Virus record (IMG/VR): IMGVR_UViG_2657244940_000010 | DNA: 4,967 nt | Direction: 5' to 3' (one strand) | Source of the DNA: a virus | Lineage: Duplodnaviria; Heunggongvirae; Uroviricota; Caudoviricetes | Part shown: positions 1 through 4,967 of the stretch, piece after piece | How positions within the stretch are numbered: the first letter of the stretch is position 1 | Layout: every line of letters begins with the position of its first letter | The notes under the pieces: model-generated | Told to the model about the DNA's origin: nothing | Database searches by the model: none | The model's input: only the letters and a program-made list of their open reading frames with translations | Program-made: the position numbers and the translations under genes

Positions 1-1
1 G

Positions 2-3001
2 GAAGTTCGCCTGCTGGTTCAGATACAGCGTAACGGTGGCTGGGTGACGGAAAAAGACATCACCATTAAGGGCAAAACCACCTCGCAGTATCTGGCCTCG
101 GTGGTGGTGGATAACCTGCCTCCGCGCCCGTTCAATATCCGGATGCGCAGGATGACACCGGACAGCACCACAGACCAGCTGCAGAACAAAACGCTCTGGT
201 CGTCATACACCGAAATCATCGATATGAAACAGTGCTACCCGAACACGGCACTGGTCGGTGTGCAGGAGGACTCGGAGCAGTTCGGCAGTCAGCAGGTGAG
301 TCGTAATTATCATCTGCGCGGGCGCATTCTGCAGGTGCCGTCGAACTATAACCCGCAGACGCGACAATACAGCGGTATCTGGGACGGAACGTTAAAACCG
401 GCATACAGCAACAACATGGCCTGGTGTCTGTGGGATATGCTGACCCATCCGCGCTACGGCATGGGGAAACGTCTTGGTGCGGCGGATGTGGACAAATGGG
501 CGCTGTATGTCATCGGCCAGAATTGCGACCAGTCGGTGCCGGATGGTTTTGGTGGCACGGAGCCGCGCATCACCTGTAATGCCTGGCTGACCACACAGCG
601 TAAGGCGTGGGATGTTCTCAGTGATTTCTGCTCGGCGATGCGCTGTATGCCGGTATGGAACGGGCAGACGCTGACGTTCGTGCAGGACCGGCCGTCGGAT
701 AAGGTGTGGACCTATAACCGCAGTAATGTGGTGATGCCGGATGATGGCGCGCCGTTCCGCTACAGTTTCAGCGCCCTGAAGGACCGCCATAATGCCGTTG
801 AGGTGAACTGGATTGACCCGGATAACGGCTGGGAGACGGCGACAGAGCTTGTGGAGGACACGCAGGCCATTGCCCGTTACGGTCGTAACGTCACGAAGAT
901 GGATGCCTTTGGCTGTACCAGTCGGGGGCAGGCACACCGAGCCGGGCTGTGGCTGATTAAAACGGAACTGCTGGAAACGCAGACCGTGGATTTCAGCGTG
1001 GGCGCAGAAGGGCTTCGCCATGTGCCGGGCGATGTTATTGAAATCTGCGATGATGACTATGCGGGTATCAGCATCGGCGGGCGCGTGCTGGCGGTGAACA
1101 GCCAGACCCGGACGCTGACGCTCGACCGTGAAATCACTCTGCCATCCTCCGGTACCACGCTGATAAGCCTGGTTGACGGAAGCGGCAATCCGGTCAGCGT
1201 GGAGGTCCAGTCCGTCACCGACGGCGTGAAGGTAAAAGTGAGCCGGGTTCCTGACGGCGTTGCCGGATACAGCGTGTGGGGGCTGAAGTTGCCGACGTTG
1301 CGCCAGCGCCTGTTCCGCTGCGTGAGTATCCGTGAGAACGATGACGGCACGTATGCCATCACTGCCGTGCAGCATGTACCGGAAAAAGAGGCCATCGTGG
1401 ATAACGGGGCGCACTTTGACGGCGACCAGAGCGGCACGGTGAATGGTGTCACGCCGCCAGCGGTGCAGCACCTGACTGCCGAAGTCACCGCAGACAGCGG
1501 GGAATATCAGGTGCTGGCGCGCTGGGACACGCCGAAGGTGGTGAAGGGGGTGAGCTTTATGCTTCGCCTGACCGTGGCAGCGGATGACGGCAGTGAGCGG
1601 CTGGTCAGCACGGCCCGGACGACGGAAACCACATACCGCTTCACGCAACTGGCGCTGGGGCGGTACACGCTGACAGTCCGGGCGGTAAATGCGTGGGGGC
1701 AGCAGGGCGATCCGGCGTCGGTATCGTTCCGGATTGCCGCACCGGCAGCACCGTCGAGGATTGATCTGACGCCGGGCTATTTTCAGATAACCGCCACGCC
1801 GCATCTTGCCGTTTATGACCCGACGGTACAGTTTGAATTCTGGTTCTCGGAAAAGCGGATTACCGATATCAGGCAGGTTGAAACCACAGCCCGCTATCTT
1901 GGCACGGCGCTGTACTGGATAGCTGCCAGTATCAATATTAAGCCGGGCCATGATTATTATTTTTATATCCGCAGTGTGAATACTGTTGGCAAATCGGCAT
2001 TCGTGGAGGCTGTCGGTCAGGCGAGCGATGATGCTTCCGGCTATCTGGATTTTTTCAAAGGCCAGATAACTGAATCCCATCTCGGCAAGGAGCTGCTGGA
2101 AAAAGTCGAGCTGACGGAGGATAACGCCAGCAAACTGGAGGAGTTTTCGAAAGAGTGGAAAGACGCCAACGATAAATGGAATGCCATGTGGGGCGTCAAA
2201 ATTGAGCAGACCGAAGACGGCAGGCATTATGTCGCGGGTATTGGCCTCAGCATGGAGGATACGGAGGAAGGCAAACTGAGCCAGTTCCTGGTTGCCGCTA
2301 ACCGTATCGCGTTTATTGACCCGGCAAACGGGAATGAAACGCCGATGTTTGTGGCGCAGGGCAACCAGATATTCATGAACGAAGTGTTCCTGAAGTATCT
2401 GACGGCTCCCACCATTACCAGCGGCGGCAATCCGCCGGTATTTTCCCTGACACCGGACGGGCGGTTGACGGCGAAAAATGCCGATATCAGCGGTAACGTG
2501 AATGCGAACTCAGGGACGCTCAATAATGTCACGATTAACCAGAACTGTCGGATTCTGGGAAAACTGTCTGCCAACCAGATTGAAGGTGATATTGTCAAAA
2601 CGGTGGGAAAAGCCTTTCCGAGAAATGGCAGTTATGCCAGCGGTACAATAACGGTCACTGTGTACGATGACCAGGCTTTTGACCGTCAGATAGTAATCCC
2701 ACCCGTTCTGTTTCGCGGTGGTAAGCATGAAAACTTCAACAGCAACAACCAACAGTCATACTGGTATTCAACCTGTAAGCTGCAGGTACTGAAGAACGGA
2801 CAGGAAATCTTTCAGCAACCCGCGACGGATGTCAGCAGGGTATTTTCATCCGTCATTGATATGCCAGCGGGACACGGCCATGTCACCCTGACTTTCAATG
2901 TTTCTTCATATGGTGCAAATAACTGGACGCCAACGACCAGTATCAGCGACCTTCTTGTTGTCGTGATGAAGAAATCAACAGCCGGTATCAGTATCAGTTG
3001 A
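2..3001 (+). CDS. J: Tail tip / host specificity protein J (central tail fiber), lambda-like; 5'-partial, the N-terminal part lies upstream of the window
   Basis: The frame opens at position 2 with no stop ([25 protein letters not shown]...) and runs to TGA at 2999..3001. The translation matches lambda gpJ as I recall it over most of its length, including the FN3-like central region and the conserved [16 protein letters not shown] motif. The GTG at 44 used by the ORF track is an internal codon, not the real start. The last ~150 aa differ from lambda J. Confidence 0.95.
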
Positions 3002-3019
3002 ATTTTATAACCCAAATAC

Positions 3020-3048
3020 GGGCGCCAGAAATGGCGCCTTTTTTATTT
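3020..3048 (+). terminator. Rho-independent terminator downstream of J
   Basis: Read directly: stem GGGCGCCA (3020..3027) pairs with TGGCGCCT (3032..3039), with one G-T wobble at the base, around a GAAA tetraloop (3028..3031), followed by TTTTTTATTT. It begins 19 nt after the J stop codon. Confidence 0.65.
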
Positions 3049-3050
3049 GT

Positions 3051-3054
3051 GGAG
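3051..3054 (+). promoter_or_regulatory. Shine-Dalgarno sequence (GGAG) for the stf-like gene
   Basis: GGAG lies 5 nt upstream of the ATG at 3060. Confidence 0.6.
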
Positions 3055-3059
3055 TGAAT

Positions 3060-4712
3060 ATGGCAGTACAGATTTCAGGCGTGCTGAAAGACGGTGCAGG
3101 AAAACCAATACAGAACTGTACTATTCAGCTCAAAGCAAAGCGTAACAGCACCACGGTACTGGTGAACACGGTGGCCTCTGAAAATCCGGATGAAGCCGGG
3201 CGTTACAGCATGGATGTTGAGTATGGCCAGTACAGCGTCACCCTGCTGGTTGAAGGTTTTCCGCCTTCACATGCCGGGACCATTACCGTCTATGAAGGTT
3301 CCAGACCAGGTACGCTGAATGATTTTCTCGGTGCCATGACGGAAGATGATGTCATGCCGGAGGCATTGCGTCGTTTTGAGGTAATGGTGGAGGATGTGGC
3401 ACGCAACGCTGAAGCCGCCTCTCAGAGCGCAGCGGCAGCAAAGAAATCAGAAACAGCAGCGGCATCGTCCAGGAACGCGGCGAAAACATCAGAGACGAAT
3501 GCAGGTAACAGCGCGAAAGCGGCAGCTTCTTCAAAAACAGCCGCACAAAACGCAGCAACAGCGGCAGAACGTTCAGAGACAAATGCCCGTGCGTCAGAAG
3601 AAGCCTCCGCAGACAGTGAAGAGGCTTCCCGCCGTAATGCAGAGTCAGCCGCTGAAAATGCCGGAGTCGCCACCACAAAAGCGCGGGAGGCTGCAGCAGA
3701 CGCAACAAAGGCCGGGCAGAAAAAGGATGAGGCTCTGTCGGCAGCGACACGAGCTGAAAAGGCGGCAGACCGCGCAGAAGCCGCAGCGGAAGTGACTGCA
3801 GAGCCCTATGCGAATATAGTGCCGCCGCTGCCTGATGTGTGGATACCGTTTAACGATTCACTGGATATGATTGCGGGTTTTTCTCCGGGCTATAAAAAAA
3901 TAGCTATTGGTGACGATGTGGTTCAGGTCGCCAGTGATAAACAGGTTAATTTCAGTCGCGCATCAACGGCAACATATATCAACAAATCTGGCGAACTGAA
4001 AACGGCGGAAATTAATGAGCCGCGATTTGAGTGTGATGGCCTGCTTATTGAGGGACAAAGAACGAACTACATGCTCAATTCGGAAAGTCCAGCCAGCTGG
4101 GGGAAGTCATCAAACATGGATGTGCCCGAAACCGGGACGGATAGTTTTGGTTTTACTTATGGAAAGTTTGTCTGCAACGATTCTCTGGTTGGGCAAACTT
4201 CGGCTATTAATATGGCATCAATTGCTGCAACAAAGTCAGTTGATGTCTCAGGCGATAACAAGTACGTGACAACCTCATGCCGTTTTAAAACAGAACGACA
4301 GGTAAGGTTACGTATACGGTTTGATAAGTATGATGGTAGTGCAACAACTTTTCTTGGCGATGCGTACATTGATACGCAAACGCTTGAAATTAATATGACA
4401 GGTGGTGCTGCCGGCAGAATTACGGCACGAGTCAGGAAGGATAAGACCACGGGCTGGATTTTTGCAGAGGCAACGATTCAGGCAATTGATGGAGAGTTAA
4501 AAATAGGCTCTCAGATACAGTATTCTCCTGAGCAGGGTGGGGCAATCAACGGTACGCACCGGCTCCGGTTGTCCTGGTGCCTCTTTTTGATGGAGCTGCA
4601 CTTCGTCGGCCTGCAGACGGCTGTTACCCTGCATGATATCCACGCTGCCAGTAAACACGGCGTCATCCGGGTAGTCCCCTTTCGCGTGGTCAGCATTGAT
4701 AGTCACGGGTAA
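3060..4712 (+). CDS. stf: Side tail fiber protein Stf homolog, 3'-truncated and chimeric: phage-derived codons 1 to ~495 (3060..~4544) followed by ~56 codons read through antisense lptD
   Basis: ATG at 3060 with a GGAG site upstream; the GTG at 3054 in the ORF track is probably not the start. The N-terminus [33 protein letters not shown]...[14 protein letters not shown]...[13 protein letters not shown] matches the conserved N-terminal domain of lambda Stf and StfR-type fibers. An Ala/Ser/Glu-rich shaft with KTSETNA-type repeats follows, then a distinct distal module ([26 protein letters not shown]...). After ...[10 protein letters not shown] the reading frame is antisense to lptD, and the stop at 4710..4712 lies in host-derived sequence. 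Confidence 0.85.
3400..3800 (+). repeat. Low-complexity Ala-rich coding repeats in the tail fiber shaft (imperfect repeats of GCAGCGGCAGC and TCAGAGAC[G/A]AATGC)
   Basis: Read directly: reiterated GCn codons and SETNA-like peptide repeats. This region generates the spurious overlapping ORFs at 3394..3795 (+), 3352..3750 (-) and 3422..3676 (-). Confidence 0.6.
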
Positions 4713-4859
4713 GTCATTGGTATCGCCCTGTACCAGAGGACGGTCATAGCTTGGCACGCCCAACATGCACTGTGAGGCGAGGTCGGCTGCCAGTCCCTGT
4801 TGACTATAAAGGGCGGTGGCAATCATGGTGGCCAGGAGAGTGGGGATACGTTTTTTCAT
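4497..4859 (-). CDS. lptD: LPS-assembly protein LptD (Imp/OstA), N-terminal fragment: native first 105 codons including the signal peptide, then 15 non-native codons and a stop; probably a gene remnant
   Basis: The - strand ATG at 4859 gives [105 protein letters not shown], which matches the E. coli LptD N-terminus as I recall it. Homology ends at about 4545; the frame then runs through phage-derived sequence to TAA at 4497..4499. Confidence 0.85.
4540..4550. other. Novel joint between phage tail fiber DNA and inverted host lptD 5' region (breakpoint approx 4544/4545, uncertain by about 10 bp)
   Basis: On the - strand, codons for ...EPVRTVD (ending at 4545) match native LptD, which I recall continuing ALGNVHYDD. 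Here the next codons are CPTLLRR..., and on the + strand the sequence left of ~4544 is in frame with the stf-like gene. Confidence 0.7.
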
Positions 4860-4967
4860 ACGTTGATTTTATTGTTCCATCATCGGTAACGTTGCGCGTG
4901 ACAAACGGTCAGAGACTAACGTACTCGTCATCTCTACGCTAGTGTTAATCCTGTCCGAATAGCGTCT
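4860..4967 (-). promoter_or_regulatory. lptD 5' untranslated / upstream region (promoter not precisely located)
   Basis: The 108 bp upstream of the lptD start codon are non-coding on both strands apart from a spurious antisense ORF. Native lptD is known to have sigma-E-dependent transcription, but I could not place a convincing -35/-10 pair by eye. Confidence 0.4.

Follow-up and report, generated by a model that had tools for sequence, protein, structure and literature searches.

Gene content of the window and anatomy of the joint

The window, i.e., the whole stretch of 4,967 nucleotides that was analysed, is the entire contig CDRA01000264.1 of the draft Escherichia coli assembly GCA_000947375.1 and is identical to it in sequence. 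On its plus strand it begins with the 3′ 3 kb of the gene for gpJ, the lambda-type tail tip (host specificity) protein J, which occupies positions 1 to 3001, was recognized as an open reading frame (ORF) matching gpJ of E. coli MCJCHV-1, and runs off the contig start at window position 1; a Pfam search of the native gpJ protein returned J-protein domains. A terminator-like hairpin with a T-run (3020 to 3049, plus strand), kept in both MCJCHV-1 and MS20659, lies between gpJ and the side tail fibre gene stf. Within positions 3002 to 3059 the hairpin directly follows gpJ, and stf comes next without lom in between, unlike on the phage lambda map, where we take lom to lie between J and the side tail fibre gene. 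Codons 1 to 495 of the 686 codons of stf are present at 3060 to 4545 (plus strand; native ORF at 9060 to 11120 of the MCJCHV-1 region L001), and the N-terminus of the protein, residues 1 to 131, was assigned by Pfam to family PF08400 (phage_tail_N, ‘Prophage tail fibre N-terminal’).

The opposite end of the window is host DNA. Positions 4545 to 4859 of the minus strand hold codons 1 to 105 of lptD, encoding the signal peptide and the first half of the LptD_N domain, with a 100% match in many genomes, and the first 108 nt of the lptD-djlA spacer (4860 to 4967) extend from there to the contig end at 4967. Profile positions 1 to 60 of the 113 positions of LptD_N (PF03968, Pfam) are left on the minus-strand ORF; native lptD measures 2,355 nt (1961 to 4315 of region L002), and the break falls inside this domain. 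Past the point at which stf and lptD meet, each reading frame continues antisense to the other gene: the stf frame (ORF 3054 to 4712) reads on for 55 codons and a stop at 4546 to 4712 of the plus strand, and the lptD frame (ORF 4497 to 4859) for 15 codons and a stop at 4497 to 4544 of the minus strand. The original prediction that both genes are cut of their 3′ parts at one and the same point, stf after codon 495 of 686 and lptD after codon 105, is thus borne out.

An ORF of 611 codons on the minus strand (392 to 2227) lies antisense to gpJ and wholly inside it. No Pfam family matched it, and in all likelihood it is the shadow ORF of a gene with codon bias; long antisense ORFs similarly overlie an alanine-rich segment of stf at 3352 to 3795.

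That a phage gene is fused to the start of the essential gene lptD in the window sequence is confirmed as a real observation. Positions 1 to 4545 align with the gpJ-stf region of MCJCHV-1 with 2 mismatches in 4545 nt, positions 4545 to 4967 are 100% identical to lptD plus the spacer preceding it in strain 104, among others, and base 4545 is the break point in every BLAST alignment with three collections (megablast in the case of the 5,426 complete E. coli genomes). The two segments split exactly between 4545 and 4546, where the joint had been claimed to lie. Native stf continues with ...GGGGCAACAGTATCTGG and native lptD with ...CCGAGCGCATCAACGG; at the joint itself the phage parent reads ...GGGGCAA and, past it, CAGTATC, the lptD parent reads ...GAGCGC and then ATCAACGG, and the window reads GGGGCAATCAACGG. 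Native lptD past codon 105 is therefore a different sequence, in agreement with the original prediction.

Both parents of the joint, which the prediction had expected to be identifiable by alignment together with a break point and any microhomology, were found, with the break at 4545 and an overlap of one base. This base, A4545, is common to both parents, and neither filler nor repeat is present at 4545 to 4546. Since a random join gives an overlap of at least 1 nt about 44% of the time (our own calculation), the 1-nt overlap does not represent meaningful microhomology. In a side-by-side alignment of the parents the joint is likewise devoid of an IS end, an att-like core, a target duplication and a linker, and a rearrangement by an IS element or a site-specific recombinase was rejected in view of the missing IS terminus, att-like core and target-site duplication. 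Every base of the window could be assigned to one of the two native parents. Because these parents have no common repeat, a purely algorithmic false overlap is ruled out, and the joint must therefore have been present in at least one physical molecule or read.

The joint is known from a single contig. It is spanned by 0 of the 5,426 complete E. coli genomes (megablast) and was found in 0 of 50,697 phage records and 0 of 72,556 plasmid records, with alignments breaking at 4545; exact-pattern scans of the GTDB species representatives, the JGI metagenomes and IMG/VR returned none either. In a collection of 153 billion gene positions the fused 550-residue Stf ORF is represented by one contig only, CDRA01000264.1, and the truncated 120-residue LptD ORF has no record there.

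Source of the phage arm and arrangement of the two parents

Judged by its alignments, the phage arm can be assigned to the gpJ-stf end of the lambdoid prophage at the sit/icd locus of B2 E. coli, and it is closest to ST1193. The arm is carried by 641 genomes. Next to stf lie two small ORFs followed by sitDCBA (the sitABCD operon), not lptD. In the ST1193 relatives the prophage is a remnant with the order ybcN...quuD-ompC-essD-lysozyme'::'J-stf, and the annotation of this remnant in the nearest relatives lists no int, xis, terminase or head genes. The ‘gpJ’ of MCJCHV-1 (L001, 5411 to 9001) is itself a fusion in which the first ∼70 residues are phage lysozyme (PF00959) and J follows directly; an old internal deletion seems to have removed the lysis genes through the middle of the tail module in the ST1193-type prophage. 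A complete prophage with int, xis, terminase and head genes is present at the icd/sit locus of MS20659, where the J and stf sequences differ and the cargo comprises iss and sitABCD (L016, L017).

Two further observations concern stf. RefSeq splits the ORF of 686 codons into a ‘pseudo’ N-terminal-domain fragment and a ‘phage head spike fiber domain-containing protein’ (L001, 9060 to 11120, and likewise in FEX669 and MS20659), which appears to be an annotation artefact, as the ORF translates unbroken. Window positions 4380 to 4545 are 99.4% identical (one mismatch in 166 nt) to stf of sequenced free lambdoid phages, including Lambda_4C10, 4A7, mEp460_4F5, D2, 1W and 3W, and the tail-fibre module of the chromosomal remnant is therefore also found in deposited phage genomes.

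The arrangement of the two parents on the chromosome is of key importance for any interpretation of the joint. In MCJCHV-1, which belongs to ST1193 (PMC11488385), both arms lie on the same (minus) strand, and the joint would connect position 2,798,624 (end of the phage arm) to position 3,988,242 (start of the lptD arm), the span between the joined ends being 1,189,619 bp. The arms are placed alike in FEX669, FDAARGOS_536 and AVS0096, where the spans are 1.17–1.20 Mb. Hence, the joint is head-to-tail, i.e., a later coordinate is joined back to an earlier one on the same strand. An inversion can be rejected, since it would fuse the genes co-directionally, and so can a simple deletion, since a joint of this orientation would leave only a circle of 1.19 Mb. 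By K-12 map positions, such a circle would presumably be without oriC. A tandem duplication is the only viable biological structure with a head-to-tail joint. This structure was absent from the four explanations offered by the original prediction, and, as it keeps an intact copy of lptD, the apparent paradox of a truncated essential gene is gone. The same geometry disposes of one of those four explanations, a deletion at the edge of a prophage.

Sequence variants near the joint and at the contig end

The 4.5-kb phage arm has two mismatches to the nearest complete genomes, at positions 267 and 4493. Both are T-to-A substitutions in a GG_T_G context on the plus strand. At position 267 (caGGTGga to caGGAGga) the substitution converts GTG into GAG and thus Val into Glu in gpJ; A267 was encountered in 0 of the 5,426 complete genomes, among which the best match over window positions 1 to 420 is 99.8%. 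At position 4493 (atGGTGag to atGGAGag), 52 nt upstream of the joint, GGT is changed into GGA, which is synonymous in stf; A4493 likewise occurs in 0 of the 5,426 complete genomes, with a best match of 99.2% over 126 nt. An origin of A4493 from a related stf copy in another prophage was rejected, as close copies have T, distant copies have G, and none has A; a related gpJ copy elsewhere was rejected as the source of A267, that base being found in no complete genome. Diversity within an E. coli clone predicts roughly no such substitutions in 4.5 kb. The two changes look like the product of either a specific mutational process or a systematic error in sequencing or in the consensus, the shared context comprising two events, which are too few to tell error from mutation.

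A third difference lies on the lptD side, 12 nt downstream of the joint, where the plus strand of the window carries C at position 4557. This is a natural minority allele: the exact 96-nt stretch with C4557 is present in 129 of the 5,426 genomes. Among the genomes closest to the phage arm, MCJCHV-1 and M1/5 carry T here, and a single mismatch to the 96-nt stretch was found in KKo003 as well as in SCU-387. In the C-allele genomes checked (FEX669, MS20659 and PSUO2), the phage arms or stf segments are only 95–98% identical. Hence, two of the three differences from the nearest relatives (4493 and 4557) fall at most 52 nt from the joint, a clustering with a probability of ∼1e-3 under uniform placement (our own post hoc calculation), and both lie within one read length of it.

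The joint is located 423 nt from the contig end. The native DNA that runs across position 4967 is single-copy and uninterrupted in all 5,426 complete genomes, and none of them has an insertion or a repeat at this site between lptD and djlA. At the other end, most of the nearest relatives have a single copy of the DNA immediately to the left of the contig start, although homologues of gpJ are widespread in E. coli as a whole. The contig terminates with T4967, a lineage-variable site with T in B2 strains and A in K-12 and O145. A simple bubble or mixed allele in a de Bruijn graph does not account for the end at T4967, as the shared node should stop one base earlier. Both arms of the window carry B2-type alleles.

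Origin of the joint and its meaning

We consider it probable, with a likelihood of roughly two in three (∼0.65), that the joint reflects a chimeric sequencing template and not a feature of a living genome. Two unrelated fragments from the same B2 E. coli DNA preparation, one ending in stf and the other in lptD, would have been joined in vitro, e.g., by blunt-end ligation in library construction or within a chimeric read. The chimeric read could then have been taken up where coverage was thin, at one end of a short contig; with little competing coverage the assembler may have passed from stf into lptD and continued there over 423 nt, as far as read support reached. From what was observed directly, namely the joint as a singleton, its two parents and their geometry, the surplus of mismatches around it and a contig that ends in unique DNA, we infer that read support for the joint was low and that the joining occurred in vitro. 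In favour of a chimeric template, (i) the joint is seen in one draft contig only and close to its end, (ii) a 1-nt overlap is the signature of end-joining of random fragments, (iii) the contig stops in unique DNA without a repeat and the lptD arm resembles a dead-end overhang, (iv) the consensus looks poor, with two substitutions absent from complete genomes, and (v) the excess of mismatches, two of three within 52 nt, is found close to the joint. Chimeric library inserts, moreover, far outnumber reads across any single real rearrangement joint. Chimeric inserts and reads known from sequencing libraries resemble the window in their abrupt joints of 0–1 nt between unrelated partners megabases apart, and in the combination of a joint in one assembly near a contig end in unique DNA with a local mismatch excess. 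The window differs from them in that its arm beyond the joint, at 423 nt, exceeds the length of a single short read: as a typical Illumina read of 2015 is shorter than this arm, ordinary lptD reads must have extended it, and with good coverage a de Bruijn graph would normally lead to a contig break at the joint. Likewise, C4557 is a natural allele and not a random error, so that lineage may account for its nearness to the joint, and a real duplication would be expected to show the head-to-tail orientation, even though a random chimera would produce it half the time. Two other in-vitro routes were rejected: circularisation in mate-pair libraries also yields head-to-tail joints, but over kilobases only, and chimeras from multiple displacement amplification (MDA) are typically inverted and local. 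The assembly chimera proposed in the original prediction therefore belongs to the best-supported family of explanations when it is understood as a chimeric template or read, and falls away when it is understood as a false overlap made by the assembler, for which a common repeat would be needed.

Alternatively, the joint may be the real, in-vivo join point of a tandem duplication of ∼1.19 Mb running clockwise from lptD codon 105 to stf codon 495, a reading that we regard as unlikely but deserving of serious consideration. Illegitimate (homology-independent) recombination of sister chromosomes would have given rise to such a duplication, which either the whole culture or only part of it could carry; intact lptD and stf, one each, would be retained at the outer ends, yielding a viable cell, and the joint would encode a truncated LptD(1-105) peptide along with a truncated Stf. 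The same-strand, head-to-tail placement of the arms in each genome in which both were located, the length of the arm past the joint, which exceeds a single short read, and the B2-type alleles on both arms, which fit a single genome, argue for this reading. The weight of the orientation is limited by the fact that a random chimera shows it half the time, and duplications of megabase size are unstable and usually have long repeats, e.g., rrn operons or IS elements, at their end points. So-called ‘short-junction’ tandem duplications have reportedly been described by Reams and Neidle in Acinetobacter and by Reams and Roth in Salmonella. The joints of homology-independent duplications resemble that of the window in that distant sites on the same strand are connected head-to-tail and intact copies of both interrupted genes would be kept. 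Joints with 0–5 bp of identity are indeed documented for homology-independent duplications in bacteria, but the sizes of these range from 12 to 290 kb, far below the ∼1.19 Mb implied here (PMC9997567). In addition, under a duplication the lptD arm should lead on into djlA with doubled read depth, whereas the contig runs for 423 nt past the joint and then stops in unique DNA, with no repeat at that point; a duplication also leaves unexplained the substitutions that are absent from complete genomes and clustered at the joint; and the joint is in no other genome or assembly searched. It is doubtful that the source was a clinical B2 (ST1193-like) isolate, or a sizeable subpopulation of one, with a homology-independent tandem duplication of ∼1.19 Mb connecting lptD codon 105 to stf of the sit/icd locus.

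The allele pattern of the few genomes checked hints that the two arms may stem from two source strains, with an ST1193-like strain contributing the phage arm and a second B2 strain with C4557 contributing the lptD arm. All four of the nearest phage-arm relatives checked differ from the lptD allele of the window, all three C-allele genomes checked have a diverged phage arm or stf (95–98%), the C allele is confined to 129 of the 5,426 genomes, and the contig ends exactly on the lineage-variable T4967. However, this comparison covers a handful of genomes as against the 641 with the phage arm, and, since E. coli recombines, a single lineage carrying both could exist; T4967 is an ordinary B2 allele; and two strains would still need to be joined in vitro, which makes this a variant of the chimeric template and not a separate mechanism. 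We thus consider a cross-strain artefact to be quite improbable. An engineered or cloned construct, e.g., a library clone or an lptD promoter fragment placed in a prophage, was another of the original proposals. The lptD arm indeed comprises the gene start and 108 nt upstream of it, as do promoter or signal-sequence fusions, but no vector, linker, reporter, restriction scar or resistance marker is present, all bases are native chromosomal ones, the background is a clinical B2 lineage and not a laboratory strain, and the joint is in none of the 72,556 plasmid records, so that this origin finds no support and is very improbable. Least credible is the aberrant excision of the specialised-transducing (lambda-dgal or lambda-bio) type which the original prediction had put forward alongside a prophage-edge deletion. 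The window shares with lambda dgal and lambda bio joints the placement of phage DNA against bacterial DNA via illegitimate recombination; the resemblance, phage late-gene DNA against host DNA with almost no homology, is a general one, although some strains such as MS20659 do have a complete prophage at the locus. In those classical joints the host partner lies beside the attachment site and the DNA is capsid-sized, whereas in all genomes examined ∼1.19 Mb separate lptD from the prophage, and this distance is more than 20 times the capacity of the lambda capsid. Moreover, stf is flanked by sitABCD and not by lptD, the remnant in the nearest relatives has its J fused to lysozyme and is devoid of any annotated int, xis, terminase or head gene, and the orientation is head-to-tail and not deletion-type. 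An aberrant excision is hence excluded by the distance of lptD, the orientation of the joint and the remnant state of the prophage.

Either outcome falls within known classes, and an artefact is likelier than a real joint. If the joint is an artefact, its meaning is that of a quality flag only: contig CDRA01000264.1 would contain a spurious gene fusion and a spurious ‘truncated lptD’, by which analyses of pan-genomes, pseudogenes or essential genes could be misled. A useful check in comparable cases is provided by the strand and the distance of the two parents, which at once remove the explanations from phage biology. If, on the other hand, the duplication were true, the substitutions clustered at the join point would suggest error-prone repair, and a truncated LptD(1-105) would be expressed from the native lptD promoter region. 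A real joint would then represent an unusually large homology-independent tandem duplication in a clinical isolate of E. coli, which, the class being known, would be of modest interest.
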